64,000 nucleotides of DNA, taken from assembly GCA_964372275.1 (NCBI GenBank), contig CAYJRR010000004.1:7113-71112 (forward strand). Direction: 5' to 3'. A program made the position numbers and the translations under genes. This stretch comes from an uncultured bacterium (lineage in GTDB: Bacteria; CAYJRR01). Every line of letters starts with the position of its first letter. The stretch's first letter is position 1. This document shows, piece by piece, positions 5,742 through 57,614 of the stretch. The notes under the pieces were generated by a model. That model did not search any database and was not told the origin of the DNA. It was given only the letters and a program-made list of their open reading frames with translations.

Positions 5742-5972
5742 GGCGGCCCCTCGGCGGACACGCACGCAAACCGCCCGATGTTCCAAAGGCGGGGTGAAGA
5801 CACGAAGGGACGGCGACACCAGCCGCTCGGATTCCGATCGGATTCCGGCCGGATACCGATCGGTTCGGATCGAGCCGGGTCGGACGCGGGAAGCCCTTTC
5901 TGTTCCGTGGGGTTCCGATCATGAGCAGGGTATATTCGTACCAGGGTCAGGAACCACGGGGTCGGAAGCCCT

Positions 5973-11851: not shown

Positions 11852-11880
11852 CCGTAGCGCGGATCGACCCGCTTCAACCA

Positions 11881-14904: not shown

Positions 14905-15653
14905 ACCGCCGCCGCCTCACGGCGCTCCTTCCGCTGGTGGCGGGAGGGATGCTGCTGCCCCGGCGGGCGGCGGCGATCGGGGCCCGCACCGCCTTCACCA
15001 TCGCGCGCCTGCGGCACGGCGGCGAGTGGAACCCGCGCCCGAACGCCGCGCGGCGGATCATGGCCGAGGTGGCGAAGGCGACCTCGGTGGAGACGGCCGA
15101 ATCGCCGGTCGACCTGGAGGCGACCGATCCGTCGATCTTCGACCATCCGTTCCTCTACCTCACCGGGACGGGCGAGCTCCCCCCCTTCTCGGCGAAGGCG
15201 CGGGAGGTCCTCGGACGCTACCTCCGCTATGGCGGGTTCCTGTTCGCCGACGGCGCCGCGGGCGAGGCGGACGGCGCATTCGACCGCACGTTCCGCCGCG
15301 AGATCGCCGCCATCCTCCCCGACGGCCCGCTTTCGCGCCTCGACGACGACCACTCCATCTTCCGCTCGTTCTTCCTGGTGAACCGAGTCGTCGGCCGCGT
15401 CGCGGAGCGCCCGTTCCTCGAGGGGATCTCCCTCGCCGACTGGACCCCCGTCGTCTACACCCCGAACGACCTCGGCGGCGCCCTCGAACGCGATCCGTTC
15501 GGAAACTACCGCTTCGACGTCAGCCCCGGCGGGGAGGAGCAACGCTCCTGGGCGGCGCGTCTGGCGGTGAACCTCGTCCTCTACGCCCTGACGGTGAACT
15601 ACAAGAAGGACCAGATCCACGTCGAAGCGGTGCTGCGGCGGAGGCGGCGATGA
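14901..15653 (+). CDS. DUF4159 domain protein
   Basis: ATG at 14901 overlaps the upstream stop. Signal peptide present. The C-terminal NLVLYALTVNYKKDQIHV is the characteristic DUF4159 ending. Confidence 0.7.
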   Translation: MNRRRLTALLPLVAGGMLLPRRAAAIGARTAFTIARLRHGGEWNPRPNAARRIMAEVAKATSVETAESPVDLEATDPSIFDHPFLYLTGTGELPPFSAKAREVLGRYLRYGGFLFADGAAGEADGAFDRTFRREIAAILPDGPLSRLDDDHSIFRSFFLVNRVVGRVAERPFLEGISLADWTPVVYTPNDLGGALERDPFGNYRFDVSPGGEEQRSWAARLAVNLVLYALTVNYKKDQIHVEAVLRRRRR

Positions 15654-23575: not shown

Positions 23576-23585
23576 GGCTCGCCGG

Positions 23586-27439: not shown

Positions 27440-28439
27440 CGACGTCCTCCGCATCTTCTGCGAGATCGGGCGCGCGATGGCGCGAGGGCACGGCTACGAC
27501 CCGCTGATCCGCGCCGTCGTCCGCGCGTCGACCTCCCTCACCGACGCCGACGCCGGGAGCGTCCTGGTGCTCGACCCCGCCACCGGAAATCTGATCTACC
27601 GCAGCGGGCACCGGATGACCGGGCCCGAACGGACGATCTCCTTCGCGCCGGGCGAAGGGGTCGCCGGCTGGGTGGCGCTCCACGGCCGGTCGGCACGCGT
27701 CGCCGACGTGGCCCGCGACCGCCGCTTCGTGAAGAAGAGCGGCCAGCGCCGCGCCATCGGCTCGCTGCTCTGCGTCCCGGTAACGGTGCGGAGCAAGGCC
27801 GTCGGCGTCTTGACCGTCACCTCGGCGAAACGGAACGCCTTCGCCCGGCTCCATACGCGCCTGCTGACGGCGCTTGCCGGTCAGGTGGCGCTCGACCTGG
27901 AGAACGTGCGGCTGGAGGCCTTGGCCACGCGCGATCCGCTCACCGGGATCGCCAACCGCCGGCGTTTCGACGAGCGCCTCGACCAGCTCCTCGCCGAAGG
28001 GCGGCCTGCGCGGGCGCCGATCGCGGTGCTGATGCTCGACCTCGACCGTTTCAAATCGATCAACGACCGGCACGGCCATCCGGCCGGGGACGCGGTCCTG
28101 CAACAGGCGGTGCAGCGGTGGACCGACTCGCTGCGCGGGAACGACCTGCTCGCCCGTATGGGCGGCGAGGAGTTCGGACTCCTGCTCCCCGGCGCAGACA
28201 GCCGCCGCGCGGTCGAGGTGGCGGAGCGCCTGCGCGCGCGCGTCGAGCACCGCCCGTTCCGGGTGAGGCGGCTCTCGATCGCGGTCACCGTCTCGGTCGG
28301 AGTCGCCGTCTCGCCGCGCGGCGCCGGAACACCCGGCCGGCTCCTCGCCGACGCCGACCGGGCGCTCTACGCCGCCAAGGAGGGTGGCCGCAACCGCGTC
28401 GTCCTCGCCCGTCGCGGGGGTCACTCCGTGACGGCGTAG
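27426..28439 (+). CDS. GAF domain-containing diguanylate cyclase (GGDEF)
   Basis: GTG at 27426 overlaps the kdd stop. N-terminal GAF domain. The GGDEF active site is RMGGEEFGLLL, and the inhibitory site RxxD is also present. Confidence 0.8.
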   Translation: MSTPDDVLRIFCEIGRAMARGHGYDPLIRAVVRASTSLTDADAGSVLVLDPATGNLIYRSGHRMTGPERTISFAPGEGVAGWVALHGRSARVADVARDRRFVKKSGQRRAIGSLLCVPVTVRSKAVGVLTVTSAKRNAFARLHTRLLTALAGQVALDLENVRLEALATRDPLTGIANRRRFDERLDQLLAEGRPARAPIAVLMLDLDRFKSINDRHGHPAGDAVLQQAVQRWTDSLRGNDLLARMGGEEFGLLLPGADSRRAVEVAERLRARVEHRPFRVRRLSIAVTVSVGVAVSPRGAGTPGRLLADADRALYAAKEGGRNRVVLARRGGHSVTA

Positions 28440-35776: not shown

Positions 35777-35958
35777 GCGGACGCGGACGGATGACGATCA
35801 CCAAGCGCCAGAAGGAACGCGCGAGGGAGGAACGCCGCAAGGAGAAGGCCGACCGGGCCGCGCGCCGCAAGCTCGAGAAGAGCGAGCGCCCGCGCGAAGA
35901 CGGCGTCGACCCCGACATCGCGGGGATCGTGCCCGGCCCGCAGCCGATCCCGGAGTGA
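35773..35958 (+). CDS. small basic (Lys/Arg-rich) hypothetical protein
   Basis: GTG at 35773 overlaps the RRM gene's stop (GTGA); an ATG at 35791 is an alternative start. 55-61 aa and highly charged. Confidence 0.35.
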   Translation: MSGRGRMTITKRQKERAREERRKEKADRAARRKLEKSERPREDGVDPDIAGIVPGPQPIPE

Positions 35959-35992
35959 CCGACTGCGACCGACCGTAAGACGGATCGCTCGG

Positions 35993-37213
35993 ATGGAGAC
36001 GGGAACGAGGGAGCGGCAGGCGGTCTTCGTCATCGCCGACATCAGCGGCTACACGCCGTTCATGGCGCAGCACAAGAAGGCGCTGGCCCACAGCCAGATG
36101 GTCATCTCGGCGCTGCTGCAGACGATCCTCGAGCAGTGTGACTCCGGGCTCCAGGTCGCCAAGCTCGAAGGGGACGCCGCGTTCCTCTACGCCTTGCGCG
36201 ACGGCGGCGAGAAACAGCTCGGTCGCCGGCTGCTGGCAATCGTCGACCGGTTCTGGCACAAGCTCGCCGAGCTGACGGCCACCAGCATCTGCAACTGCGA
36301 CGCCTGCACCACCATCGATCGCCTGCGCCTAAAGATCGTCGTCCACGCGGGGGAGGCGCTGTTCTACAAGATCGGCGCCTTCGAGGAGCTGTCCGGCTTT
36401 GACGTGATCGTGGCGCACCGGCTGCTCAAGAACTCGGTCGAGGCGGACCAGTACATCCTCCTGACCGAGGAGGCGTATCGGGCGATCGAGTTCGGCGAGG
36501 CGATCCACGCGCAGGGATCGGAGAGCTACGACGGCATCGATCCGATCCGGACCTACGTCCACTTCCCCGCCGTCGAGCGGATCCAGTTCGGCGACGGAGT
36601 CCTCAAACCGTGGGCCTCCGGCGGGGTCGCGGTGGAGATCCTGCGCTACGAGGTGCGGAAGGAGTACGCGGAGGTCGCGACCTGCCCCACCAAGGGGTTC
36701 CACTTCCACACCGGTCGGCCGCTGGCGGCGATGTGCGGCTATCCGGCGGCGTGGATCGACGAGCTGCCGGCCGCCGCCGTCGAATCGATGGCCGGGACCG
36801 GCAATCCGTTCCAGGTCGGACCGCTCCGGGCGGGCGAGCGGGTCGTCGACGTCGGTTGCGGCGCCGGCGCCGACAGCCTGATCGCCGCGCGCCAGGTGGG
36901 ACCGAGCGGGCGCGTGAAGGGGTTCGACCTCACGCCGCAGATGGTCGCCAAGGCGAGGGGGTCGGCGGCGGAGGTGGGACTCACGAACGTCGAGTTCGCC
37001 GAGGCGGAGGCGGAGGCGATCCCGGTCGAGGACGGCTGGGCCGACGTCGTCATCTCCAACGGCGCGATCAACCTCTGCCCGGACAAGGGGCGCGTCTTCC
37101 GCGAGCTGTTCCGCGTGCTCAAGCCGGGCGGGCGGCTGCAGATCGGCGACATCGCCGTCGAGCGCGCCGTGCCGGAGAAGGCCAAACGCAAGCTCGACCT
37201 CTGGACCGGTTGA
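35993..37213 (+). CDS. DUF2652/nucleotide-cyclase-like domain fused to an ArsM-like SAM-dependent methyltransferase; the frame ends at an in-frame TGA that replaces a conserved Cys codon (candidate selenocysteine; a possible readthrough product would extend to 37384)
   Basis: ATG at 35993. Methyltransferase motifs are VVDVGCGAG, VISNGAINL and FRVLKPGG. The ORF ends LDLWTG-TGA. The next in-frame codons encode IAGALLEAELGQVVTEAGFEGFAV..., continuing the conserved ArsM C-terminus (LW.GC.AGAL). Confidence 0.7.
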   Translation: METGTRERQAVFVIADISGYTPFMAQHKKALAHSQMVISALLQTILEQCDSGLQVAKLEGDAAFLYALRDGGEKQLGRRLLAIVDRFWHKLAELTATSICNCDACTTIDRLRLKIVVHAGEALFYKIGAFEELSGFDVIVAHRLLKNSVEADQYILLTEEAYRAIEFGEAIHAQGSESYDGIDPIRTYVHFPAVERIQFGDGVLKPWASGGVAVEILRYEVRKEYAEVATCPTKGFHFHTGRPLAAMCGYPAAWIDELPAAAVESMAGTGNPFQVGPLRAGERVVDVGCGAGADSLIAARQVGPSGRVKGFDLTPQMVAKARGSAAEVGLTNVEFAEAEAEAIPVEDGWADVVISNGAINLCPDKGRVFRELFRVLKPGGRLQIGDIAVERAVPEKAKRKLDLWTG

Positions 37214-42766: not shown

Positions 42767-42806
42767 TTGACATGCTACGCACATGTGAGCATGCTATGCA
42801 CATGTC
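42767..42806 (+). promoter_or_regulatory. putative vapB promoter/operator: TTGACA -35 hexamer overlapping two 17-nt direct repeats (CATGCTAyGCACATGTs), each ending in the palindromic half-site ACATGT
   Basis: Read directly from the sequence, immediately upstream of the RHH antitoxin start codon. Confidence 0.5.
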
Positions 42807-43035
42807 GAAGATGATTCAGATCCGAAACGTCCCCGACGAGGTCCACCGTCGGCTGAAGGCTCGAGCGGCAGAGGCGGGGATGACGCTTTCCGATTACCTG
42901 CGCAGGGAGGTCACGGAGGTCGCGCGCCGTCCCACCGTTCACGATCTCGTGGAGCGGCTCCGCTCGCGCACCGCGGTCCACCTGCCGACCAGCGCCGCGT
43001 CCGCCGTCCGAGAGGAGCGGGACCTTCGCACGTGA
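42802..43035 (+). CDS. vapB: ribbon-helix-helix antitoxin (VapB/FitA-like)
   Basis: MSKMIQIRNVPDEVHRRLKARAAEAGMTLSDYLR is a typical RHH antitoxin. In-frame ATGs at 42796 and 42811 are alternative starts. Confidence 0.75.
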   Translation: MSKMIQIRNVPDEVHRRLKARAAEAGMTLSDYLRREVTEVARRPTVHDLVERLRSRTAVHLPTSAASAVREERDLRT

Positions 43036-43430
43036 CCGTCCTGGACGCCTCTGTCGTGGTCGACCTCCTCCTGCGATCGACGCGCGATTTCGACGCCGTA
43101 GCCGCCCGCATCGCGGCGGAGGCGCCGCGACTCGCGGCGCCGCACCTGCTGGATGCCGAAGTGGCCCAGGTGCTGCGCCGATTCGTGCGAAGCGGCGACC
43201 TCTCGCCGTCGCGTGCGACGGAAGCGCTGATCGATCTCGACGGGCTGCCCGTGACCCGCTATCCGCACCTTCCGCTCCTTCGGCGGGCGTTCTCCCTGCG
43301 GGAGAACGCGACGATCTACGACGCGCTCTACCTGACCCTCGCCGAGGCGCTCGGCGGTCCGCTTCTGACGCGGGATCGCGCCCTCGCCTCGGTCCCCGGC
43401 CATCGCGTGCGGGTCGAGGTCTTGTCCTAG
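43032..43430 (+). CDS. vapC: PIN-domain toxin VapC
   Basis: GTG at 43032 overlaps the vapB stop. The N-terminal LDASVVVDLL carries a PIN acidic residue. 132 aa. Confidence 0.75.
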   Translation: MTVLDASVVVDLLLRSTRDFDAVAARIAAEAPRLAAPHLLDAEVAQVLRRFVRSGDLSPSRATEALIDLDGLPVTRYPHLPLLRRAFSLRENATIYDALYLTLAEALGGPLLTRDRALASVPGHRVRVEVLS

Positions 43431-43539: not shown

Positions 43540-44808
43540 GTGGGCGCGCTTCGCCTTTCGGCGTGGCGGTCGGTGTCCGACGAGGACTGGGCCGACGGAC
43601 GCTGGCAACTCAAGAACCGCGTCACGACGCGCGCGGCGCTGGAGTCGGTCCTCGCCCTTTCCGACGACGAGCGGGCCGGCGTCGCCGCCGCCGAGACGAG
43701 CGGCGGATTCGAGTGGGGGATCACCCCCTACTACCTCGACCTCGTCGACCCCTCCGATCCGCGCGATCCGATCCGGTTGCAGTGCGTTCCGCGCGGCGCG
43801 GAGGGGCACGTCGTTCCGCACGACCGGGTCGATCCGCTCGGGGAGGACCCGAAGATGCCGGTGCCGGGGCTGGTGCACCGCTATCCGGATCGCGTCCTCC
43901 TGCTGTTGACCGACCGCTGCAGCGTCTATTGCCGCTTCTGCACCCGCCGGAGGCTGGTCGGGACGGAGGAGCGTCAGCTTCGCGCCGCGGAGCTGGATCG
44001 CATCGTCGACTACCTCCAGAGCCGGCCGGAGGTCCGCGAGGTGATCGTCTCCGGCGGCGATCCGCTGGTCGCCGGCGACCGATTCCTGGAGACGACGCTC
44101 GCCCGGTTGCGCGCGCTCCCGTCGATCGAGCTGTTGCGGATCCACACCCGCATGCCGGTGGTCTGCCCGCAGCGGATCACCGCGCGGCTCGCGCGGACGC
44201 TCCGGCGCTTCCAGCCGCTCTACGTCGTCACCCACTTCAACCACCCCTACGAGGTCACCCCGGAGGCGGCGGCCGCCTGCGCGCGGCTCGCCGACGCCGG
44301 CGTGCCGCTCGCCAATCAGGCGGTGCTGCTCGCCGGGGTCAACACCGACGCCGCGATCCTCGAGGCGCTTTCCCGGGAGCTCTTGCGCGTGCGCGTCCGG
44401 CCCCACTACCTCCATCAGGGGGACCTCGCGTCGGGGACCGAGCACTTCCGCACGCCGCTCGACGCGGGTGTCCGTCTCCTCTCCGCGCTCCGAGGGCGCC
44501 TGTCGGGGCTCGGGATCCCGCAGCTGATCGTCGACCTGCCCGGCGGCAAGGGGAAGGTCTCGGTCGCGGCCGACCCGGTCGCCCGCCGCCACGGCCGCGA
44601 GATCGACTTCCACGCCCCGCTGGGAGGGACCGCGCGCTACGTCGAACCGGCGGCGACCGACCTCGCCTGCTCGACGGCCCACGCGGTCGCGCGCCGCTAC
44701 CGCATCGCGCCGACCGAGGCCCGCCCCGCCCTCGACGCGGCCGCCACCGCGCGGCGTCCGGCGGACGCTCCTCTCGTGCGACTCGCCCGGCCGGGAGGAC
44801 GACAGTGA
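43540..44808 (+). CDS. kamA: lysine 2,3-aminomutase (radical SAM)
   Basis: CSVYCRFCTRRR is the CxxxCxxC radical-SAM cluster in the KamA-specific context. GTG at 43540 or TTG at 43534 is the start. Confidence 0.85.
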   Translation: MGALRLSAWRSVSDEDWADGRWQLKNRVTTRAALESVLALSDDERAGVAAAETSGGFEWGITPYYLDLVDPSDPRDPIRLQCVPRGAEGHVVPHDRVDPLGEDPKMPVPGLVHRYPDRVLLLLTDRCSVYCRFCTRRRLVGTEERQLRAAELDRIVDYLQSRPEVREVIVSGGDPLVAGDRFLETTLARLRALPSIELLRIHTRMPVVCPQRITARLARTLRRFQPLYVVTHFNHPYEVTPEAAAACARLADAGVPLANQAVLLAGVNTDAAILEALSRELLRVRVRPHYLHQGDLASGTEHFRTPLDAGVRLLSALRGRLSGLGIPQLIVDLPGGKGKVSVAADPVARRHGREIDFHAPLGGTARYVEPAATDLACSTAHAVARRYRIAPTEARPALDAAATARRPADAPLVRLARPGGRQ

Positions 44809-46418
44809 GCCGCGAACGCGGGCCGATCCAGGTCGACGCCAGGAAGATCGCGGCCGCGCGCGCGCTGGCCGAGTCGATCACCGCCGACGTGCAGGCGTTC
44901 ATCGACCGCCATACCACCGTTTCGGTCGAACGCAGCGTGCTGCGGCTGCTCGGCGTCGACGGCGCGCACAGGGCCGACGGCGCCGAGGTACCGCTGGTGA
45001 ACGTCGTCGTCGAGGAGGTCCGAAAGGCAGGAAGGCTCGACGACGGGATCGCCTCCGTCCTCGCCGCCGCGGAGAAGACGCAGGGCGGAAGCCTCCAGGA
45101 GGTCTGCGAACGGATCGCCCGGAAGGAGATCGAGCCAGGCAGCCTTCCGCGACTCGATCCCGGCGAGGTCGAGGCGATGCTAGGGCTCAGAGCCGACGAC
45201 GCGGTGGCGCGCCTGCACGCCTGCCGCGATCGGAAGCGGGAGAAGCTGGCGAAGTACGGCGACGCGACCCGGCCCTACAACTACGTGATCGTCGCCACCG
45301 GGAACATCTTCGAGGACGTTGTGCAGGCGAAGGCCGCCGTCGACGCCGGCGCCGACATCATCGCGGTGATCCGCTCCACCGCGCAGTCGTTGCTCGACTA
45401 CGTCCCGATCGGCACCACCACCACCGGCTTCGGCGGCACCTGGGCCACCCGCGAGAACTTCCGCGTGATGCGCGCCGCGCTCGACGAAGAAGAGAAGAAG
45501 CGGAACCGCTACCTCCGGCTGACCAACTACTCCTCCGGGCTGTGCATGTCGGAGATTGCGGTCCTGGCCGCGTTCGAGGACCTCGACTGCCTGCTGAACG
45601 ACTCGATGTACGGGATCCTCTTCCGCGACATCAACATGAAACGGACCTTCGTCGACCAGTACTTCAGCCGGCTGGTCTGCGCCAACGCCGGGATCATGAT
45701 CCAGACCGGCGAGGACAACTACCTCACCACCGCCGAGTCGCTGGGCGCCTTCCACCAGGTCGTCGCCAGTCAGTTCATCAACGAGTCGTTCGCCAAGCGC
45801 GCCACCCTGCCGGACGAGCTGATCGGACTCGGACACGCCTACGAGATGGACCCGGCGACCCCCGACTCCTTCCTCCTGGAGCTAGGACAGGCGCTGCTGG
45901 TCCGGGAGTGCTTCCCGCACGCGCCATTGAAGTACATGCCGCCGACGCGGCACATGACGGGCGACATCTTCTTCGGCCACGTCTACGACTCGTTCTTCAC
46001 GCTCGCGTGCGTCTGGAGCCGTCAGACGACGCAGCTTTTGGGAATGCCGACCGAGGCGGTTCACACCCCGCTCCTGATGGACCGCTACCTCTCGCTGGGC
46101 GCGGCGAACTACGTGAAGCGGGCCGCGGCGGGGATCGCCTCTGAGGTCCGGTTCGCGCCCGACGGCATCGTCCAGACGCGCGCGCGCCAGGTGCTCGACG
46201 AGGCGCTCGCGCTCCTGGAGGAGGTCCGGCGCGTCGGATTGATGAAGGCGATCTCGCTCGCGCGCTTCGCCGACGTGAAACGCCCGGTCGACGGCGGAAA
46301 GGGGCTGGAGGGGGTGGTTCCCAAGTCCCGCCGCTACGCGAATCCGCTGTCGGGGCGGATGCTTGAGGGCCGTCCCGCGAATAAATCGAAGGGGCGTTCC
46401 GTCGACCTTCGCAGGTAG
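44805..46418 (+). CDS. kamD: lysine 5,6-aminomutase alpha subunit (beta-lysine 5,6-aminomutase)
   Basis: GTG at 44805 overlaps the kamA stop. 537 aa with a PLP-binding TIM-barrel-type sequence, conserved along its length with KamD. Confidence 0.8.
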   Translation: MSRERGPIQVDARKIAAARALAESITADVQAFIDRHTTVSVERSVLRLLGVDGAHRADGAEVPLVNVVVEEVRKAGRLDDGIASVLAAAEKTQGGSLQEVCERIARKEIEPGSLPRLDPGEVEAMLGLRADDAVARLHACRDRKREKLAKYGDATRPYNYVIVATGNIFEDVVQAKAAVDAGADIIAVIRSTAQSLLDYVPIGTTTTGFGGTWATRENFRVMRAALDEEEKKRNRYLRLTNYSSGLCMSEIAVLAAFEDLDCLLNDSMYGILFRDINMKRTFVDQYFSRLVCANAGIMIQTGEDNYLTTAESLGAFHQVVASQFINESFAKRATLPDELIGLGHAYEMDPATPDSFLLELGQALLVRECFPHAPLKYMPPTRHMTGDIFFGHVYDSFFTLACVWSRQTTQLLGMPTEAVHTPLLMDRYLSLGAANYVKRAAAGIASEVRFAPDGIVQTRARQVLDEALALLEEVRRVGLMKAISLARFADVKRPVDGGKGLEGVVPKSRRYANPLSGRMLEGRPANKSKGRSVDLRR

Positions 46419-46445
46419 AATCCACGAGAACTCTTGGAGGGTCCC

Positions 46446-47117
46446 ATGGTCTCCACGCCGAACCCGCGCAACGCTCCGGTCCTGGTCCCGGTCCTGACGG
46501 CGGTCGCGTCGATCGCCAGCCTCGTCGCGGGCTGCGGACCGCCGCCCGCCACGCCGCGCGCCGAGACGATCGAGCAGTGGGCGACCGGGAGCACCTCCTC
46601 CTCGAACGGATCGACGGGGACCGACTGGGCGTCGATCCAGGCGTTGGGGGAACCGGACGTCGTCGACGAGTTCGGGACTCCGATCTGCGACGACAACCCG
46701 AACGCCTGGTCGCCGGCCGAGGCCAATCCGGTGCCCGGCGTGAGCGGCGGCGACTACATCGACGATTGGCTCGAGCTCACCTACGACTACTACGTCTTCG
46801 TACGCAAGGTCCGCATCTACGAGACGTTCGCGCCGGGGGCGATCGTGGCGGTCGACCTGGAGCGCACCGACGGCGCGCTGCCGCCGCTGCCGGTCTACGA
46901 GAACCCCGACGGCAACGGCGAGATCCCCGGGCCCACGCCGTGCCCGAGCGTCTTCAAGATCGAGACGACGAACGGACCGACCCCCGACCAGTACAACCGG
47001 GTGGTGATCTACATCGACTCCAACCTGGTCGGCGACGTCAACGGCGTGAACGGGTCGGAGGACGACTACAACGAGATCGACGCCGTCCAGCTGATCGGCG
47101 ACATCCTCGTCGACTGA
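46446..47117 (+). CDS. lipoprotein, hypothetical (inserted between kamD and kamE)
   Basis: ATG at 46446 with a GGAGGG ribosome-binding site. Lipobox SLVAGC. 223 aa. Confidence 0.6.
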   Translation: MVSTPNPRNAPVLVPVLTAVASIASLVAGCGPPPATPRAETIEQWATGSTSSSNGSTGTDWASIQALGEPDVVDEFGTPICDDNPNAWSPAEANPVPGVSGGDYIDDWLELTYDYYVFVRKVRIYETFAPGAIVAVDLERTDGALPPLPVYENPDGNGEIPGPTPCPSVFKIETTNGPTPDQYNRVVIYIDSNLVGDVNGVNGSEDDYNEIDAVQLIGDILVD

Positions 47118-47124
47118 CCGGCGC

Positions 47125-47928
47125 ATGGACGCCCATCTGCCGAAGACCTCCTCCGCGGGAGGGGCTCGCGGTCCGGACCCGAAGAACCTACGAGCCTACG
47201 GCGACATGTGGGACGACGGGACGCTGCAGGTCTCGTTCTGCCTGCCGATGGAGGCGGGTCCCGAGGCGCGCGAGGCGGCGACCCAATACCTGCAGAAGCA
47301 CGGTTTCAAGAAGATCGGGATCGCGGAGATGGGGCGGGCGGCCGCCGGGTTCTCCTTCTTCGTCGCCTATGTCCGCTCGCCGGTCTCGGTCGACGTCACG
47401 CGGATCCGCGTGCCCAAGGTCGACACCCCACGTCTGTCGTTCGACGAGGTGAACGACCTCCTGCGAACGCGGCTCGGTCGGAAGTTGGTGGTCGTGGGGG
47501 CCTGCACCGGCGCCGATGCCCACACCGTCGGGATCGACGCGATCATGAACATGAAGGGGTTCGCCGGGGACTACGGGCTCGAGCGCTACCCCGAGATCGA
47601 GGCCCACAACCTGGGGGCCCAGGTGCACAACCGCGACCTGGTGGCGAAGGCGAAGGAGCTCGGGGCCGACGCCATCCTCGTTTCGCAGGTGATCACCCAG
47701 CACGACATCCACGTCGAGAACCTGCGCGAGCTGATGGAGGAGATCGAGAAGGCGGGGATGAAGGAGAGGCTGATCACCGTCGTCGGGGGTCCGCGCGTCA
47801 CGCACCGGCTGGCAGTGGAGCTCGGCTTCGACGCCGGGTTCGGACGGGGGGCGACCCCGTCGGAGGTTGCCTCGTATCTTTCGCAGGAGCTGCTGAAGCG
47901 GTCGAAGCCGGCGAAAGGCGAGCGGTGA
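47125..47928 (+). CDS. kamE: lysine 5,6-aminomutase beta subunit (B12-binding)
   Basis: The cobalamin-binding DxHxxG motif is GADAHTVG. Rossmann-like B12 domain. 267 aa. Confidence 0.8.
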   Translation: MDAHLPKTSSAGGARGPDPKNLRAYGDMWDDGTLQVSFCLPMEAGPEAREAATQYLQKHGFKKIGIAEMGRAAAGFSFFVAYVRSPVSVDVTRIRVPKVDTPRLSFDEVNDLLRTRLGRKLVVVGACTGADAHTVGIDAIMNMKGFAGDYGLERYPEIEAHNLGAQVHNRDLVAKAKELGADAILVSQVITQHDIHVENLRELMEEIEKAGMKERLITVVGGPRVTHRLAVELGFDAGFGRGATPSEVASYLSQELLKRSKPAKGER

Positions 47929-48147
47929 CGGCTGTCCGCGCCGTCCCGCGCGGGCGTTGACGTCGACCCGTTCGGTTGTTGTCATCCTCCTGTGAGCCGC
48001 GACGACAAGACCCGAGAGACGAAGGCCCCGCGCCCGCTGTCCGGCGACCGGTCCCGCACGAGCGGCGGGTCGGCCGACCCTTGGGCGGCCGACGAGCAGA
48101 CGCGGCTTTCGAAGCAGCGCCGGCCGCAGGCCAAGCTCCGTCTGCGG

Positions 48148-48507
48148 ATGTCGACGCACGACGCCCACTACGGCGGGAACCTCGTCGACGGAGCGCGGAT
48201 GTTGGCGCTGTTCGGCGACGTGGCGACCGAGCTGTTGATCCGACTCGACGGCGACGAAGGGTTGTTCCGCGCCTACGATCGGGTCGAGTTCCTGGCGCCG
48301 GTCCACGCCGGCGACTACGTCGAAGCGGTCGGGCGTCTGGTCGACCTGGGGAACACGTCGCGCCGGATCGAGTTCGAGGCGTGGAAAGTGATCCGCGCGC
48401 GCCCCGACCTCTCCGACTCCGCGGCCGAGGTGCTCGAGGAACCGGTGCTGGTCGCCCGCGCGTCGGGGACCTGCGTCGTCCCCGCCGCGAAACAGAGGCA
48501 TCGCTAA
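48148..48507 (+). CDS. kal: 3-aminobutyryl-CoA ammonia-lyase (hotdog fold)
   Basis: The C-terminal ~119 aa match the Kal size and fold. The upstream in-frame extension to GTG 47992 is low-complexity and probably not translated. Confidence 0.65.
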
Positions 48508-48509
48508 AC

Positions 48510-49328
48510 GTGGACAAGCTGATCGTCACCTGCGCCGTCACCGGCGCCGAAGTCACCAAGGCCGACAACCCGGCGGTCCCCTACACCCCGGAGGAGCTGG
48601 CGGAAAGCTCCGCCGCGGCGGTCGAGGCGGGGGCCGCCGTCATCCACCTGCACGTGCGGCACCCCGATGGCCGCCCGGCCTACGAAGCGGAGATCTTCCG
48701 CGAGGTGGTGCGGCGGATCCGTGCGCGATGCAATCCGATCGTGATGGTGTCGACGGGCGGCGCGGTCGGGATGAGCGTCGAGGAGCGATGCCAGGGCCTC
48801 GAAGCCGGCACCGAGATGGCCTCGCTCACCACCGGCACGGTGAACTTCGGTCGCGACGTCTTCCTCAATGAGCCGGAGACGATCGAGCGGATCGCCGAGA
48901 CGATCCGGGCGAAGGGGGCGAAGCCGGAGATCGAGGTCTTCGACGCCGGGATGATCGACAACGCCGCGGCGCTGGTGAAGAAGGGGCTGCTGCGGCCGCC
49001 GCTCGCCTACCAGTTCGTGCTCGGGGTTCCCGGCGGGCTGGGAGCGAGCGCGCGAAACCTGACCTACCTCGCCGACTCGATCCCTTCCGGGTCGACCTGG
49101 ACGGTCGCCGGCGTCGGTCGCCACCAGTTCACCATGGCGGCGCACGCCATCCTGATGGGAGGGAACGTGCGCGTCGGTCTCGAAGACAACGTCTACCTCC
49201 GCAAGGGGGTGCTCGCTCCGTCGAACGCGGCGCTGGTGGCGCGTGTGGTGGCGATCGCCAGGGAGTTCGACCGCGACGTGGCGACCCCCGACGAGGCCCG
49301 CGCACTCCTCGGACTGAAGTCGAATTGA
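48510..49328 (+). CDS. kce: 3-keto-5-aminohexanoate cleavage enzyme (BKACE, DUF849)
   Basis: GTG at 48510. The N-terminus is KLIVTCAVTGAEVTKADNPAVPYTPEEL, and the His-rich IHLHVRHPDG motif is present. 272 aa. Confidence 0.8.
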   Translation: MDKLIVTCAVTGAEVTKADNPAVPYTPEELAESSAAAVEAGAAVIHLHVRHPDGRPAYEAEIFREVVRRIRARCNPIVMVSTGGAVGMSVEERCQGLEAGTEMASLTTGTVNFGRDVFLNEPETIERIAETIRAKGAKPEIEVFDAGMIDNAAALVKKGLLRPPLAYQFVLGVPGGLGASARNLTYLADSIPSGSTWTVAGVGRHQFTMAAHAILMGGNVRVGLEDNVYLRKGVLAPSNAALVARVVAIAREFDRDVATPDEARALLGLKSN

Positions 49329-49329: not shown

Positions 49330-50550
49330 GTGGTGAACCTGATCGGGCTCATGTCCGGCACCAGCGCCGACGGCGTCGACGCCGCCTGGGTGTCGATTGC
49401 CGACGGACGAGGCTCGCGCGCGCGGGCCGGCCGCCCACGCGTTTCGGTCGTCGCCCACCTCACGATCCCCTTCCCTCCCTCGATTCGCCGCCGGGTGCTG
49501 GCCGCGGCAGACGACGCGCCGTTGCCGGCCTCCGAGTTGGCGGCGCTCGACGCGGAGGTCGGAGAACGATTCGCGGCCGCCGCCCTCGCCGTCGCCCGAA
49601 AGGCGCGCCGGCCGCTCGCGTCGGTGCGGGCGATCGGATCGCATGGACAGACGGTGCACCACGCCCCCGACGCGCGTCCGCGGGTTTCGATGCAGCTCGG
49701 CTCCCCGTTCGTGATCGCCGAACGCACCGGACGGACGGTCGTCGCCGACTTCCGGCGCCGCGACCTGGCGGCCGGGGGCCAGGGGGCGCCGCTGGTGCCG
49801 CGGGCACACGACCTCCTGTTCGGCGGATCGGATCGCGGTCGCGCCATCCTGAACCTGGGAGGGATCGCCAACGTCACCGTCCTTCATCCCCGGACCCGCT
49901 CGCGCGCGGCGCGGTCGGCGCGCGCGACCGACTCCGGACTCTTCGCCTTCGACACCGGACCGGCGAACATGGTCCTCGACGCGCTGACCTGGCGGTTCAC
50001 CCGTGGCCGGCGCCGCTTCGATCGCGACGGCGCGATCGCCCGCCGCGGTTCGGCCGACGACTCCCTCGTCGATCGTCTGCTGCGCGACCCCTACTTCCGC
50101 CGGCGGCCCCCGAAGAGCACCGGGCGGGAACGCTTCGGCGAGCGCTTCACCGAACGGTTGATCGCGCTCGGGAAGCGGCGTGGGATGACGGCCGCCGACC
50201 TCCTCGCGACCGCGGCCGAGCTCACCGCACGCTCGATCGCCGACGGCATCCGCCGCTTCGTGCTCCCGCGCGTCGCCGTCGATCGGTGTTTCCTCTGTGG
50301 AGGCGGCGTGCACAACGTCGACCTCGTCGCTCGGCTCCGCCGCCGGCTCGAACCGCACCGGATCGCCCTCGACACCACCGCCGCCCTGGGGGTCGACCCC
50401 GATGCGGTGGAGGCGGTCGCCTTCGCGCTCCTCGCCCGGGACACACTGGACGGTCGCGCCGGAAACGTCCCGCGCGCCACCGGAGCCCGCGGTCCGCGCG
50501 TCCTCGGCGCGATCGTGCCCGGGACCCGGGTCCCGGACGAACGGCGGTAA
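49330..50550 (+). CDS. anmK: anhydro-N-acetylmuramic acid kinase
   Basis: The N-terminal GLMSGTSADGVDAA motif is conserved in AnmK. 406 aa. Confidence 0.8.
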   Translation: MVNLIGLMSGTSADGVDAAWVSIADGRGSRARAGRPRVSVVAHLTIPFPPSIRRRVLAAADDAPLPASELAALDAEVGERFAAAALAVARKARRPLASVRAIGSHGQTVHHAPDARPRVSMQLGSPFVIAERTGRTVVADFRRRDLAAGGQGAPLVPRAHDLLFGGSDRGRAILNLGGIANVTVLHPRTRSRAARSARATDSGLFAFDTGPANMVLDALTWRFTRGRRRFDRDGAIARRGSADDSLVDRLLRDPYFRRRPPKSTGRERFGERFTERLIALGKRRGMTAADLLATAAELTARSIADGIRRFVLPRVAVDRCFLCGGGVHNVDLVARLRRRLEPHRIALDTTAALGVDPDAVEAVAFALLARDTLDGRAGNVPRATGARGPRVLGAIVPGTRVPDERR

Positions 50551-51125: not shown

Positions 51126-51443
51126 TCAGAGCGCGGTGGCGAGATTCTCGACTGCGATCCGGCGTAGCTTGAGGTAGCGATTCTCGTCGATGCGACGCCG
51201 CTGCAGGGGTTTGCGAAGCCTCTCTCCGGCCTCGCCAATTTCGCGTGCGTAGCGGACCGGCCAGTGGTGCCGCCAGCCTTCCAGATAGGCAAGCAGGATC
51301 ACCGCGTGCGACTCCTGGAGACTCGCCGGATTGATCGCGGCAAGTGCGCGGCGCACGGCGGGAAAGTCGATCGACGCGGGTCTCTCCCGGATGGCGCCCT
51401 CGGGAAGTCCCGCGGCCGCCAGCGTCTTCCAAGGGTCCTCCAT
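51126..51443 (-). CDS. hypothetical small protein
   Basis: 105 aa with protein-like composition. Its ATG is read from the same CATG tetramer as the divergent gene on the other strand. Confidence 0.35.
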   Translation of the reverse strand: MEDPWKTLAAAGLPEGAIRERPASIDFPAVRRALAAINPASLQESHAVILLAYLEGWRHHWPVRYAREIGEAGERLRKPLQRRRIDENRYLKLRRIAVENLATAL

Positions 51444-51972
51444 GCCGTCTATCGTAGCAGACGTGCCGGTGCTCGACCGCGATCGCCTCGACGCGATCGT
51501 GAACGCCATCTGTGAGCGGCTGGACGGCGAGTGGCTCCTCGTCGGCGGCGCGCTCGTCTCGCTATGGCTCGAGTCGCGCCGCACGACGGAAGACGTCGAC
51601 GTTCTCGGACTCGATGGATCTGCGCGGGAGCGGCTCGCGCTCCTGGAGCTGGGCGATTCCCTCGGCCTGCCTGTCGAGGCGCTGAACTCCGCCGCCGACT
51701 TTTTCGTCAAGCGGATTCCCGACTGGCGCGACCATCTGGTTCTTTTTCGGAAGGGTCCCAAGGGATCGGTCTTCCGACCGGACGGGACGCTCTTTCTCCT
51801 TCTCAAGCTCCGGCGCCTGGACGAGCGCGACCTCGAGGACTGCAGGGCGCTCGTCGACGCCGGCGAGCCGTTCGACCGCGCGCGCGTGCTGTCGGCCCTC
51901 GATCGATTGCCGCCGCCCGCCGACGACGCGGTGTCGTCGCGGCGAGAGATTCTTCGGACGCTGATGCAGTGA
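51442..51972 (+). CDS. minimal nucleotidyltransferase-fold protein (MNT-like)
   Basis: LLVGGALVSLWLESRRTTEDVDVLG fits the hG[GS]...D.D nucleotidyltransferase motif. GTG at 51463 is an alternative start. Confidence 0.45.
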   Translation: MPSIVADVPVLDRDRLDAIVNAICERLDGEWLLVGGALVSLWLESRRTTEDVDVLGLDGSARERLALLELGDSLGLPVEALNSAADFFVKRIPDWRDHLVLFRKGPKGSVFRPDGTLFLLLKLRRLDERDLEDCRALVDAGEPFDRARVLSALDRLPPPADDAVSSRREILRTLMQ

Positions 51973-52351: not shown

Positions 52352-53103
52352 TCGGGCCCTGGCCAGCGCTGCGTCATGTTCCAGAGTACGAGCGATACGA
52401 GAGCAACCGCACCACCGATTCCGGCGATGCCGGCGATCGCTCCGAGAAAGGCCGACCCGAACGTCCTCGTCAAGGGATCCAAGGTCGGCCGAAGCGGTTC
52501 CGGCAGCGGTCCGCCCTGCGCGACATAGTGCAACGCCAATCCGACGAGCACCGCGAACCCGCCGGCCACGAGCTGAAGGCGTCGGAGCCAAGCCGTGTCC
52601 CGCCGGCCGGAGTCGCGCCAGGGTTTCAGGTCCCTCGGGCGTAGCCCGAAGCCGACGGCGACCTCTTGCGCCGTGAGCTCAGAACCCGACATACACCGCG
52701 ATGCACCCGTCTCCGCGCCGAGTCGGAAGACGGCAGTCCCTTCCATCAGAAACGCGATCCGGCCGGCCCCGGGCGATGCGTCCGCCGGCGTCCGGGACAG
52801 CGCGAGCGCCACGGAATCAACCACGCGAAAGACTCTCGCGAAGTAACGCGGCGCGAGCTCCACGATCGACCCTTCCTGCAACAGGTCGACGGACTCGACC
52901 GGCGAGGTCCAATCGGTCCGGAACAGCAGCAGGCGGTCGGGAAGCACGGTGAGAGTCGAGGACGACCCGCTTCCCGTTCGGAGGAGGAGCTCGCTCACGA
53001 GTTCACCGGACGCGGCATCCCGCCCGTCACGCCGGTCGATGACGGTCACCGTATCGCCTCGGAGGCGGCCCGCGGAGCCGATTTCAAGCGGAAACGTGTT
53101 CAT
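52348..53103 (-). CDS. membrane-anchored hypothetical protein (downstream of the PLD gene)
   Basis: ATG at 53103 overlaps the PLD stop (ATGA). There is a C-terminal pair of transmembrane helices. Only this distal portion of the 1112-aa track ORF is protein-like. Confidence 0.5.
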   Translation of the reverse strand: MNTFPLEIGSAGRLRGDTVTVIDRRDGRDAASGELVSELLLRTGSGSSSTLTVLPDRLLLFRTDWTSPVESVDLLQEGSIVELAPRYFARVFRVVDSVALALSRTPADASPGAGRIAFLMEGTAVFRLGAETGASRCMSGSELTAQEVAVGFGLRPRDLKPWRDSGRRDTAWLRRLQLVAGGFAVLVGLALHYVAQGGPLPEPLRPTLDPLTRTFGSAFLGAIAGIAGIGGAVALVSLVLWNMTQRWPGPD

Positions 53104-54632
53104 CGGCAGGACCGGATCGACAGGGACCGGGCGAAGCTCGGGTCGAACAGTTGCTCGTCCCACGCCGCGGTGGTGGCGGCCGAGTCGACGACGACGTTGA
53201 TCTCGCGCGAGTTGCGGAAGCTCTGCACGTCCATGTTCGCGGAGCCGACGATCGCCAGCTCCCCGTCGACGGAAAGATACTTCACGTGGCTGGCGGGGGG
53301 CCCGTTCTCGGTGACGACGTCCGATCCGTCGGCGGAGTACCACCGGATCGCGAGCTGCCGGCAGGCGTCGATGCCGGCCCTGCGGGCCGCCCGGAAGAGC
53401 CGTTCGACGCTTTCGTCGTTGGTGCCGCCGCGGGTGGGCATCGATTCCGTCCACTCCTCGTAGCGCCGCGACAGCAGCAGCTCGACACGGACCCCCCGCT
53501 TCAATGTCTCGATCAACGCCCGCTCCACGGTCGGCTCGTTCAGGTTCGGCGTCTGCAGCTTGACGATCGACGTCGCGTTCCGGATCGCGGCGAGGAACGC
53601 ACGGTTCTGCGGGTTCTCGTCGTCGGCGCCACGAAGCCACGGGATTCCGTTCGCCGGGCGCGTGGTGACGAGCATCGGCGAGCACCCCGGCAGTCGCGTG
53701 AGCGGGATCGGCGGGGGGACGGACAGCCGCTCCCAACAGACCGGCGCCGGGCGATCCTCCGGTCCCGGCTCGCTCCCCGCGCGGGGGTGCGAGGCGCCGC
53801 AGGTCCAACGCCAACTCCGGCCCCACGCGTCGGCGAACTCCTGGCGCAGCGCGCCGGCCACCTCCCCGTCGAACCGGAAACCGGCGTCGAGGTAGTCGTC
53901 GTCGGTATCGTTGTCGCCGGTGACGTTGGCCCCCGTGACGATCGCGTGGCGCCCGTCGACCACCAGGTCCTTCGAATGGTTCGCGCCGAGGGCGGAGTGG
54001 TGGAAGCCGGCGAGCTCGACGCGCACCACGCCGGGATCGAGCTTCAAGCCCTCGATCCGGGCCGCGAGCGTCGACATCATCGCCTCGCTCGCGGTCGGCG
54101 CGAAGTTGACGAGCAGCCGCACCACCACCGGCGCGGCCGGCACCGACGGTCCGGCCGGCGTTCGCCCGTCCGCGGAGCGCGGGTGCGCCGCCGCCTTGCG
54201 ACGGGCGTGCAGGCGCGCGATCCCGTCCAGGATCTCGCGGGAGACCGCGGAGTCGGGGTGCCAGTTCCAGGTCTGGAGATTCGCTTCGACCTCGGTCGAC
54301 GCGATCATGCCCCCCATCCCACGGAAGATCGCCGGCCCGCGAAGGAGCACGTTCGGATCGGCGAGGTTGCCACCGGTCGCATAGAGCCCCGCCGGGAACG
54401 GCCCTCGGCGCGCGACGTCGCGGCTGGCCTGGAACACCGCGGTGAACAGCCGCCCGGCGCACGCGGGGAGCGCGGGCGCCCGCCCCACCTCCCGCAGGTC
54501 GAACAGCAGGCGCGCCGGCGGATCGCCCGGCCACGCCGGCGTGCATCCGTCCGGGACCTCCCCGCCGGCCGGCGACGCGGTCCCGAGGAGCGCGACCGCT
54601 CCGAGGACCCGACTCCATGCCGTTCGATCCAT
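53100..54632 (-). CDS. phospholipase D family protein (two HKD motifs), secreted
   Basis: The two HKD motifs are HSKDLVVDGRHAIVTGANV and HVKYLSVDGELAIVGSANMD. There is an N-terminal signal peptide. Confidence 0.8.
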   Translation of the reverse strand: MDRTAWSRVLGAVALLGTASPAGGEVPDGCTPAWPGDPPARLLFDLREVGRAPALPACAGRLFTAVFQASRDVARRGPFPAGLYATGGNLADPNVLLRGPAIFRGMGGMIASTEVEANLQTWNWHPDSAVSREILDGIARLHARRKAAAHPRSADGRTPAGPSVPAAPVVVRLLVNFAPTASEAMMSTLAARIEGLKLDPGVVRVELAGFHHSALGANHSKDLVVDGRHAIVTGANVTGDNDTDDDYLDAGFRFDGEVAGALRQEFADAWGRSWRWTCGASHPRAGSEPGPEDRPAPVCWERLSVPPPIPLTRLPGCSPMLVTTRPANGIPWLRGADDENPQNRAFLAAIRNATSIVKLQTPNLNEPTVERALIETLKRGVRVELLLSRRYEEWTESMPTRGGTNDESVERLFRAARRAGIDACRQLAIRWYSADGSDVVTENGPPASHVKYLSVDGELAIVGSANMDVQSFRNSREINVVVDSAATTAAWDEQLFDPSFARSLSIRSCR

Positions 54633-55771: not shown

Positions 55772-56842
55772 TCACGTCGCGCGCATCTCCGGGACGTACT
55801 TCTGCAGCACCTCGAAGGCCGGCAACAGCTCGCGGTACTTCTGCAGGTTCCGGCGCACGTGCTTCAGCACCGGCGGGATGTGCCGCAGGAACTTGTCGTT
55901 CCCCTTCTTCACGTCGATGAAGACGAAGCGGCCCGCCGCCTTCAGGTTCCGTTGCAGGCTCGCGTAGTCGAACTGGCGCCGGAACTCGGCCGGATCGACG
56001 GGGGGGCATCCCGCCTCCTCGCGCGCCTTCAGGTAGTGGGTGATCAGGCTGTCGACCTGCGCCTCCTGCAACGTCACGTAGGCGTCCCGCAACAGCGACG
56101 CCAGGTCGTAGGTCCACGGCCCCATCAGCGCGTCCTGGAAGTCGATGATCCCGATCCGGTCGCCGCCGTGGACCATCAGGTTCCGGCTGTGGTAGTCGCG
56201 ATGGGTGAAGACCTTCGGCTGCGATTCGATGTCGCGCGCCACCCGCTGGAAGACGGCACGAAGCCGCTCGCGGTCGATCGGACCGATCGTCGTCTCCTCG
56301 CGCGCCTCGACGCCGTACTCGAGGTAGTGGTCGAACTCCCAGACCAGCAGCTCGACGTTGAACCTCTGGTGGTAGGCGAGGCAGCGCTCGTCGACCTTCG
56401 ACGTCCCCTCCACCTGCATCGTCACCAGCCAGCGGATCGCCTGTTCGTAGAGGGCGTGGGCGCGGGCCGGGTCCCCGTCCTTCACCACCCCCTCGAGCAT
56501 CACGTCCCCCCAGTCCTCGAGGAGCATCAGGCCACGCGACCGGTCCCAGACGTGGATCTTCGGCACCGGCAATCCGATCCCGTCGAGGAACCGATGGACG
56601 TTCACGAACGGCAGTTCGTCGACCTTCTTCAGGTTCGTCTTCTCCTCGAACAGCTTCGCGGGCTGGTCGTCCATCACCCGCATCAGGATGTAGCGGCGGC
56701 CGTCGGTCTCGATCCGGTAGTAGTGGCGGTTCGAGGCGTCCCCCGGTAGGCGATGGAGCCGCACGTCGATCGCCGGCATCCGCAGGTGATCCCGGAAGAG
56801 CGAAGCGACAGAAGCCCGGAGCGCGTCCTGTTCGGCGGTCAT
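55772..56842 (-). CDS. aminoglycoside-phosphotransferase-family kinase (AmgK-like anomeric MurNAc/GlcNAc kinase candidate)
   Basis: Motifs HRDYHSRNLMV and IIDFQDA are present (the APH catalytic and DFG-like loops). 356 aa. Confidence 0.75.
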   Translation of the reverse strand: MTAEQDALRASVASLFRDHLRMPAIDVRLHRLPGDASNRHYYRIETDGRRYILMRVMDDQPAKLFEEKTNLKKVDELPFVNVHRFLDGIGLPVPKIHVWDRSRGLMLLEDWGDVMLEGVVKDGDPARAHALYEQAIRWLVTMQVEGTSKVDERCLAYHQRFNVELLVWEFDHYLEYGVEAREETTIGPIDRERLRAVFQRVARDIESQPKVFTHRDYHSRNLMVHGGDRIGIIDFQDALMGPWTYDLASLLRDAYVTLQEAQVDSLITHYLKAREEAGCPPVDPAEFRRQFDYASLQRNLKAAGRFVFIDVKKGNDKFLRHIPPVLKHVRRNLQKYRELLPAFEVLQKYVPEMRAT

Positions 56843-56870
56843 CTCCAGGGGATGATAGAACTAGGGTCCC

Positions 56871-57614
56871 ATGGGACGCGAACTCGGCGCCGACTACCAC
56901 CGGGTGGCGATGGAGGCGATCTCCCGCTTCGGCTCGGACCCGGGCGGGATCGGGGCCGCCGCCGACCTTTCGTTCGCGTCGCTGTCGAAAGGGGGCGTGC
57001 TGCACGCCTTCGGCTCGGGTCACTCCGCCGCCGGCGCGATCGAGCTGTTTCACCGCGCGGGTGGCCTGGTCCCGGTCAACGGGATCCTGGAGTCGTTCCT
57101 CTCCCCGTTCGTCGCGCCGGGTACCTCCGGCAAGCTCGAGCGGCTGGTCGGGATCGGCGCGATCCTGGTCGAACGCTACGACGTCCGCGCCGGGGAGGTG
57201 GTCGTCGTCTTCTCCAACTCCGGCGTGAACCCGGTGCCGATCGAGGTGGCTGGCGCCTCGCGCGAGCGCGGGGCGTTCGTGGTGGCGGTCACCAGCCGCG
57301 CCCACGGCCTCTCGGCGCAAAGCCGCCACCCGTCGGGGAAGCGCCTCGTCGATCTCGCCGACGTCGCGATCGACAACGGCGCCCCCGCCGGGGACGCCGC
57401 CGTCGAATTCGCCGAGGGCCGGCGGGCGGCGGCGACGTCGGGGTTGGTCAACGCCTACATCGCCAATCGCCTCGTCGCCGAGATCGTCGAACGCTACCTC
57501 GCCGCGGGGATCGATCCCCCGGTCTACCTCTCCGCGAATCTCCCCGGAGGGGACGCGCACAACGTGGGCCTGGAGGCGCGGTACCGCGACCGGCTCAAGG
57601 GGCTCTGGCGGTGA
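56871..57614 (+). CDS. SIS (sugar isomerase) domain protein
   Basis: VVVVFSNSGVNPVPIE is a SIS phosphosugar-binding fold. It is divergent from the kinase with only a 28-bp spacer. Confidence 0.6.
   Translation: MGRELGADYHRVAMEAISRFGSDPGGIGAAADLSFASLSKGGVLHAFGSGHSAAGAIELFHRAGGLVPVNGILESFLSPFVAPGTSGKLERLVGIGAILVERYDVRAGEVVVVFSNSGVNPVPIEVAGASRERGAFVVAVTSRAHGLSAQSRHPSGKRLVDLADVAIDNGAPAGDAAVEFAEGRRAAATSGLVNAYIANRLVAEIVERYLAAGIDPPVYLSANLPGGDAHNVGLEARYRDRLKGLWR

Follow-up and report, generated by a model that had tools for sequence, protein, structure and literature searches.

A predicted lysine catabolic operon with a lipoprotein gene between kamD and kamE in an uncultured bacterium

Gene layout and enzymes of the operon

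Contig CAYJRR010000004.1 of an uncultured bacterium carries a run of six genes, kamA-kamD-lipoprotein-kamE-kal-kce, whose predicted enzymes belong to the beta-lysine route of lysine breakdown and in which a lipoprotein gene separates the genes for the two subunits of lysine 5,6-aminomutase (kamD and kamE). We analysed a 64-kb stretch of this contig that contains the run (hereafter the window). Coordinates without a label refer to the window, and comparison loci are labelled L001 and so on. The six genes, and a further pathway gene (kdd) upstream of them, are as follows (aa, amino acids; SAM, S-adenosylmethionine; PLP, pyridoxal phosphate; CoA, coenzyme A; SPII, signal peptidase II; BKACE, beta-keto acid cleavage enzyme).

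kamA, 43540–44808, + strand: KamA-family radical-SAM/PLP aminomutase, probable L-lysine 2,3-aminomutase, 422 aa, GTG start
kamD, 44805–46418, + strand: alpha subunit of lysine 5,6-aminomutase, GTG start, GGGAGGA upstream
lipoprotein gene, 46446–47117, + strand: 223-aa SPII lipoprotein, GGAGGG ahead of the ATG
kamE, 47125–47928, + strand: lysine 5,6-aminomutase beta subunit, B12-binding, 267 aa
kal, 47992–48507, + strand: 3-aminobutyryl-CoA ammonia-lyase, 171 aa counted from GTG
kce, 48510–49328, + strand: 3-keto-5-aminohexanoate cleavage enzyme, BKACE family, 272 aa
kdd, 26387–27439, + strand: L-erythro-3,5-diaminohexanoate dehydrogenase, 350 aa, GGAGGAG at the start, 16 kb upstream of the operon

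The coordinates and order of the six genes, as proposed in an earlier note on this DNA, were confirmed, all on the + strand, by open reading frames (ORFs), codon-position GC content and profile searches. Codon-position GC was checked because spurious ORFs abound at the GC content of the window (∼70%): GC at third codon positions (GC3) is 0.85–1.00 in the predicted frames of all six genes, and 0.90–0.98 for the lipoprotein ORF in its correct frame. The spacings from kamA to kce are −4, 27, 7, 63 and 2 nt. The earlier note had described overlapping start and stop codons along the run, which is true of kamA/kamD (4 nt, GTGA), but the other neighbours are 2–63 nt apart. The promoter scan gave no sigma-70-like promoters, and none convincing inside the operon; terminator-like hits were no better than those in shuffled sequence, with no convincing terminator inside the operon. 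The run appears to be co-transcribed as one operon, and the AnmK gene, whose start lies 1 nt past the kce stop, may be co-transcribed with kce given that gap. Neither Rfam (gathering thresholds) nor ARAGORN detected a tRNA, a riboswitch or any other RNA family anywhere in the window. The idea of a B12 or lysine riboswitch ahead of kamA therefore lacks support; the spacer between kamA and the preceding PIN-domain gene is only ∼110 nt.

NCBIfam equivalog cut-offs are exceeded by Kdd and by all enzymes of the operon except KamA, four out of five. KamD scored 724.3 against NF052384 (cut-off 600) and matched PF09043 (E-value 4e-222). KamE scored 342.2 against NF052385 (cut-off 280) and matched PF16554 (dimerisation) and PF02310 (Rossmann B12-binding); its base-off/His-on cobalamin motif DxHxxG, read from the translation, is DAHTVG. 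Kal scored 193.3 against NF052388 (cut-off 160) over residues 47–164, with a match to PF03061 (hot-dog fold), and Kce scored 403.1 against NF052387 (cut-off 382), with a match to PF05853 (E-value 2e-106). Kdd scored 241.9 against NF052381 (cut-off 200) and is 47% identical to the Kdd of Gabonibacter massiliensis (tblastn, E-value 8e-108), whose locus L060 supplied the reference pathway proteins, named by NCBIfam.

The earlier note had considered that the proteins might fall into other subfamilies outside lysine degradation. This is not so for KamD, KamE, Kal and Kce, whereas KamA passes the cut-off of its family only (TIGR00238, 315 against a cut-off of 199). A phmmer alignment of KamA to the solved L-lysine 2,3-aminomutase of Clostridium (2A5H, chain A) scores 380 bits. 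The CxxxCxxC motif is present as CSVYCRFC, the PLP lysine (Lys337 of 2A5H) is kept, and Arg134, Asp293 and Asp330 of 2A5H, which we take to be its lysine-binding residues, are aligned and identical; the Asp293/Asp330 pair is substituted in glutamate 2,3-aminomutase. From its sequence KamA is probably a divergent lysine 2,3-aminomutase, and this is supported by its being encoded beside KamD and KamE, whose substrate is beta-lysine. Its last 50 residues, rich in Ala and Arg, contain only one Cys, and the KamA of the syntenic relative L096 behaves likewise.

The proposed steps follow the beta-lysine pathway that was reportedly established by Kreimeyer et al. in 2007. KamA would convert L-lysine to L-beta-lysine (radical SAM and PLP), and KamD and KamE would convert beta-lysine to 3,5-diaminohexanoate (adenosylcobalamin and PLP). 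Kdd would then oxidise 3,5-diaminohexanoate to 3-keto-5-aminohexanoate, which Kce, with acetyl-CoA, would turn into acetoacetate and 3-aminobutyryl-CoA; Kal would release ammonia from the latter to give crotonyl-CoA. These steps are summarised in PMC3149608. As far as predicted enzyme activities tell, the window encodes each of the five dedicated steps that lead from lysine to acetoacetate and crotonyl-CoA, and we are highly confident that the operon is a lysine/beta-lysine catabolic unit. 'Catabolism' is a safer term than the 'fermentation' of the earlier note because the fermenter-specific steps are not in the window; reactivase and CoA-transferase genes are absent from the cluster and kdd is 16 kb off. 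An acyl-CoA dehydrogenase of ACAD9/VLCAD type is encoded at 2833–4587.

The canonical anaerobe cluster (Fusobacterium nucleatum/Porphyromonadaceae type) is represented here by G. massiliensis L060, with the order atoD-kal-kce-kdd-kdd-kamA-kamB-kamC-kamD-kamE-atoA-thl-acd-etf. The window is like this cluster in encoding KamA, KamD, KamE, Kal, Kce and Kdd, with the four operon enzymes and Kdd passing the same equivalogs, and its enzymes are 43–78% identical to their counterparts in other phyla. It is unlike the canonical cluster in gene order, in that kamA abuts kamD with no kamB or kamC between them, in the distance of kdd, in the lack of attached CoA-transferase, thiolase and Bcd-Etf genes, in the divergence of KamA and in the lipoprotein gene that parts kamD from kamE.

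The earlier note had thought the pathway worth remarking in an organism of very high GC, but a high-GC host is nothing unusual: Myxococcota of 64–75% GC commonly have KamDE-Kal-Kce clusters. A KamE scan of species-representative genomes gave 518 relatives (best identity 58%), and among the best 80 of the 518, which were examined, are many Myxococcota of 64–75% GC (Archangium, Pyxidicoccus, Corallococcus and Anaeromyxobacteraceae) that carry kdd-kamD-(X)-kamE-kal-kce, where X is an insert discussed below. In a rough neighbour-joining (NJ) tree of KamD, which carries no bootstrap support and may be affected by GC composition bias, the window clade adjoins the Myxococcota. MXAN_4388 of Myxococcus xanthus has long been annotated as KamD (PMC5131308), and Vital et al. 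reported the pathway from many phyla, Actinobacteria, Thermotogae and Proteobacteria among them (PMC3994512). No MYXO-CTERM-like tails were found by regular expression in the window, or by NCBIfam in L097 and several window proteins.

The lipoprotein and the kamD-kamE junction

The ORF at 46446–47117 is a real gene for a 223-aa lipoprotein, as the earlier note had claimed. Its signal peptide ends in ASIASLVAG and is followed by the lipobox Cys, C30 (cleavage LVAG/C), and then by a Pro-rich GPPP linker. A LAGC-type lipobox (L-[LV]-A-G-C) with canonical n- and h-regions is found in 13 of 14 homologues; the fourteenth (P0011) was called N-terminally truncated, and its full ORF carries LTGC. The mature protein is highly acidic (33 D/E versus 7 K/R), whereas the Kam proteins are of ordinary composition. 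A word-indexed search found 14 close homologues and a profile search 66 at an E-value of 1e-8 or lower, while an exhaustive profile search brought the number of proteins with the domain to 2277. Large proteins often have several copies in tandem, and the ten of them that were scanned contain F5/8-C, Big_5, PPC, LamG or M56 peptidase domains. No paralogue is found elsewhere in the window. That the ORF arose by chance is ruled out by its GC3, its dozens of homologues, the conserved lipobox and the confident fold.

The AlphaFold2 model of the lipoprotein (from an alignment of 64 sequences) has a predicted local distance difference test (pLDDT) score of 86.3. In the PDB, the top Foldseek matches of the model are to the beta-sandwich at the centre of PAPP-A and PAPP-A2 (7ufg, 8d8o and 8sl1; E-values 3e-8 to 1e-7), followed by F5/8-C (Factor V/VIII C2), CBM32 and neuropilin b1. 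The best structural match is thus the central domain of human pappalysin-1 (PAPP-A; 7UFG, 8D8O; PF25900), of the galactose-binding-domain-like/discoidin superfold (E-value 3e-8, ∼20% identity, template modelling (TM) score ∼0.53 on the query). The window protein differs from PAPP-A in that it lacks a protease domain and is a stand-alone lipoprotein from a bacterium. Precomputed annotation lists PF25900 ('PAPPA') for most members of the family; local Pfam and NCBIfam scans found nothing in the lipoprotein, and a Pfam-A hmmscan did not return PF25900 even at an E-value of up to 10, a discrepancy of database or version. Membership in PF25900 is therefore suggested by the precomputed annotation and the modelled fold. 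On the model and the predicted export signal, the protein is probably a lipid-anchored, exported, very acidic binding module with a beta-sandwich of PAPP-A/discoidin type, and not an enzyme subunit.

Gene-order comparison in relatives, which the earlier note had suggested, shows that the insertion is conserved: the lipoprotein gene (lip) occupies the same kamD-kamE junction in at least six further uncultured lineages, those seen being of 66–68% GC.

L002, L086/L087, L090–L093 and L095: kamD-lip-kamE(-kal-kce)
L094: kamA-kamD-lip-kamE
L096: complete kamA-kamD-lip-kamE-kal-kce

In these relatives the Kam proteins are 75–83% identical to those of the window and the lipoprotein 46–54%. The ratio of nonsynonymous to synonymous substitution rates (dN/dS) in close pairs is 0.18–0.36 for the lipoprotein versus 0.02–0.15 for KamE; by this comparison of coding sequences the lipoprotein gene is under purifying selection, which is more relaxed than that on kamE. 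The family is not bound to kam operons. For example, a paralogue that is 69–71% identical to the kam-embedded copies (L088:148–1293, the same as L097:2740–3885) lies outside kam operons, directly downstream of a gene for a secreted subtilase with PKD domains, and a second subfamily (L001, L083 and L084/85) either has a HEAT-repeat protein and an ATP-binding cassette (ABC) transporter as neighbours or lies in different surroundings. The C-terminal tail of the subtilase (...TACGC...LAFLAIAAWLRRRA) resembles a MYXO-CTERM-type sorting signal, which NCBIfam did not confirm.

The genes for the two subunits are normally adjacent, as the earlier note had it: among 70 surveyed loci of other genomes in which kamE comes after kamD, fewer than 200 bp separate the kamD and kamE alignments in 54. 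At 13 Myxococcota loci the junction measures ∼500 bp. L002, also among the surveyed junctions, carries the lipoprotein itself. Two other junctions hold ORFs of different kinds: a 381-aa one, which looks Dxr-like from its sequence, in a metagenome-assembled genome (MAG) of Bacteroidota (L062:8718–9863), and a 116-aa, helical-looking one in a Victivallales MAG (L030:9599–9949). The apparent junction in L009 is an alignment artefact, the KamD alignment being split in two. In L010, L013, L016, L018, L020 and L038 (Bradymonadales, Persicimonas and Myxococcales MAGs), no KamD could be detected in the 10 kb upstream of the KamE-like gene (50–56% identity); the partner there may be another protein, or the genes may be dispersed.

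The insert of the 13 Myxococcota loci is referred to as X.

Insert X: L070:9513–10001, L054:9511–9987, L042:3399–3881, L035:7762–8277, L024:9504–10013, L055:9471–9980 and seven more Myxococcota loci

X encodes a protein of 153–171 aa with an N-terminal signal, and the copies of Anaeromyxobacteraceae type have a lipobox-like LAAC, AASC or AGAC. Its homologues number 184, all of those with a named organism come from Myxococcota, and Pfam has no domain for the family. The protein is basic (isoelectric point, pI, ∼9), and its model (pLDDT 86) is a PsbP/Mog1/DcrB-like alpha/beta sandwich. Homology of X and the window lipoprotein was rejected, since hhalign gave a probability of 3.9% and aligned only the signal peptides. 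X is widespread in the Myxococcota clade of KamD; L025, L068, L071 and L082 have no insert. Clusters of the form kdd-kamD-X-kamE-kal-kce are found, for example, in Archangium minus (L070, where X is F0U60_22745), Pyxidicoccus fallax (L054) and Corallococcus (L042). They are like the window in high GC, in the lack of kamB and kamC, in kal-kce downstream of kamE and in an exported-protein gene at the junction; they are unlike it in that the insert is a non-homologous protein of ∼160 aa and in that kamD is preceded by kdd rather than by kamA, which lies elsewhere. A literature search that omitted most subscription journals found no description of a gene between kamD and kamE. The splitting of kamD and kamE by a conserved exported-protein gene is a new variation in architecture, and the enzymes are new members of known families.

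Other features of the window

The Kal protein starts with an extension of ∼45 residues (47992–48147) that is charged, of low complexity and rich in R, D, K, S and T. There is no further in-frame start 5' of the conserved LRLRM, and GC3 is 0.87–0.92 from 47980. The extension is conserved within this clade only, because the Kal proteins of L095 and L096 align from residue 3 and canonical Kal (∼129 aa) lacks it. Peptidoglycan-recycling genes flank the operon, and L096 also has AnmK and an AmgK-like gene downstream; in L096 other genes take the place of the antitoxin/PIN pair upstream. The diguanylate cyclase gene listed below overlaps the end of kdd by 14 nt at its start.

∼42800–43430, + strand: FitA-like ribbon-helix-helix antitoxin and PIN-domain toxin (VapBC-type pair), directly 5' of kamA
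49330–50550 (+), 55772–56860 (−) and 56865–57614 (+): AnmK, AmgK-like kinase and SIS sugar isomerase
23535–26372: 945-aa PKD-containing secreted-type protein, neighbour of kdd
27426–28439: GAF-GGDEF diguanylate cyclase, neighbour of kdd
5925–9137 and 11779–18046, + strand: Bat/aerotolerance-type cluster (DUF4175, DUF58, BatA-VWA and a GATase1-like large protein)
35795–37213, + strand: ArsM-like SAM methyltransferase
51331–51972, + strand: DUF6036/AbiEii-like nucleotidyltransferase, a weak match under the Pfam cut-offs
53100–54632, − strand: two-HKD phospholipase-D-family protein

Guest gene or accessory of lysine use

On balance we favour, by a modest degree of belief, a beta-lysine catabolic operon that carries the lipoprotein gene as a guest. 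The lipoprotein would be a functionally independent envelope protein, captured at a permissive junction and expressed from the operon promoter, a proposal to which we give about even weight; the insertion would be tolerated because KamD and KamE assemble after translation. A guest role is suggested by the variety of inserts found at the junction, including cytoplasmic ones in other phyla, by the close paralogue (L088 = L097) and the distant members outside kam operons, by the lack of an insert in some Myxococcota and in Bdellovibrionota, and by the absence of any property in common between the acidic PAPP-A-like insert and the basic PsbP-like one.

Several results weigh against this explanation. 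KamA scored 374.4 against TIGR03820, the lysine 2,3-aminomutase equivalog, and so missed its cut-off of 525.4 (the canonical KamA of Gabonibacter reaches 641, and the KamA of L096, at 395, falls short as well). The ligand Cys268 of the structural Zn site of 2A5H, a site that presumably consists of Cys268 and three C-terminal Cys, is Asp in the window KamA, and KamA of this clade, that of L096 included, lacks it. A tblastn search with Gabonibacter queries found neither the KamB/KamC reactivase nor an AtoA/AtoD CoA-transferase in the 64 kb, so that the pathway may be incomplete; the CoA-transferase step mentioned in the earlier note thus has no candidate in the window. As to the lipoprotein, its gene is kept at the exact junction across lineages in which synonymous sites are near saturation, and in the neighbouring clade of the rough NJ tree, which includes cultivable Myxococcota, the junction is likewise occupied by the gene for an exported protein, one whose fold is unrelated. 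Exported inserts at one junction in two neighbouring clades are somewhat unlikely to have arisen by chance. Furthermore, only 7 nt without an obvious Shine-Dalgarno sequence lie between the lipoprotein stop and the kamE start, and given this gap the translation of kamE may depend on that of the lipoprotein gene.

Some of these points could be taken to mean that the cluster makes beta-lysine or 3,5-diaminohexanoate for an osmolyte, an antibiotic building block or the modification of elongation factor P (EF-P), and does not degrade lysine. KamA, below the equivalog cut-off, is equally near several subfamilies of its family, and no reactivase or CoA-transferase is encoded nearby. We consider this very improbable: Kal, Kce and Kdd, each above its equivalog cut-off, are enzymes dedicated to the catabolic steps downstream, and among the KamA subfamily models EpmB scores lowest for the window protein (250 bits). 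Profile scans of ∼35 of the ORFs found no AblB-like acetyltransferase, non-ribosomal peptide synthetase (NRPS) or EF-P-linked gene, and a tblastn search with seven reference proteins of the pathway, which covered part of the window ORFs, matched only Kdd and the acyl-CoA dehydrogenase.

A possible, if less probable, alternative to a guest role is that the lipoprotein is an accessory of lysine use, a strongly anionic module on the surface or in the periplasm that captures a cofactor or cationic lysine-rich substrates (peptides, or material from cell walls or prey). Its gene would then have been retained between kamD and kamE for the sake of joint regulation with the catabolic enzymes. The position conserved in at least seven lineages under purifying selection, the tight spacing on either side (27 and 7 nt), the different exported protein at the junction of the 13 Myxococcota loci and the acidity of the mature protein are all consistent with such a role. 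Moreover, many of the closest KamE relatives belong to predatory or proteolytic lineages (Bdellovibrionales, Bradymonadales and Myxococcota), and in M. xanthus a KamA gene has an effect on evolved predatory swarming (bioRxiv 10.64898/2026.05.15.725110). However, acidity is just as typical of Ca2+-binding extracellular modules, and the basic Myxococcota insert, with its other fold, shares no physicochemical theme with the lipoprotein. The operon has no linked transporter, the close paralogue lies outside kam operons, and four Myxococcota loci (L025, L068, L071 and L082) do without any insert. In a broader version of the idea, which we think doubtful, the junction would act, in the window lineage and in Myxococcota alike, as a conserved site that receives exported envelope proteins serving lysine catabolism (e.g. 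anionic or prey-binding modules that catch lysine-rich material outside the cell), one exported protein having been displaced in situ by an unrelated one.

A third gene between the subunit genes of an adenosylcobalamin-dependent mutase is also found in the Clostridium glutamate mutase operon glmS(mutS)-glmL(mutL)-glmE(mutE), where the glmL/mutL product is a cytoplasmic putative chaperone or reactivase. By analogy, the window protein could be a cytoplasmic partner or chaperone of KamDE whose hydrophobic N-terminus has been misread, and the location of its gene between B12-mutase subunit genes, in lineages without kamB/kamC beside kamDE, would fit. The canonical and conserved n-region, h-region, lipobox and Pro-rich linker argue otherwise, as do a fold and domain partners of extracellular type; in addition, Bdellovibrionota and some Myxococcota have neither reactivase nor insert. 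Unlike the glutamate mutase operon, the intervening product here is a predicted exported lipoprotein, and of all the alternatives this is the one we find hardest to believe.

Interest in the kamD-kamE split stays modest unless lipoprotein and enzymes prove to be functionally linked. If lipoprotein and enzymes are unlinked, as a guest gene would imply, the locus neatly illustrates an operon junction that is permissive and has captured guest genes repeatedly. If they are linked, an envelope protein of predatory or proteolytic soil bacteria would be tied to the breakdown of lysine in the cytoplasm, and if the junction is indeed a conserved slot for exported proteins, it would point, in predatory or proteolytic bacteria, to an extracellular arm of the beta-lysine pathway that has so far gone unrecognised. 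In either case, the high-GC clusters without KamB/KamC beside kamDE raise the question of how a suicide-prone mutase stays active.

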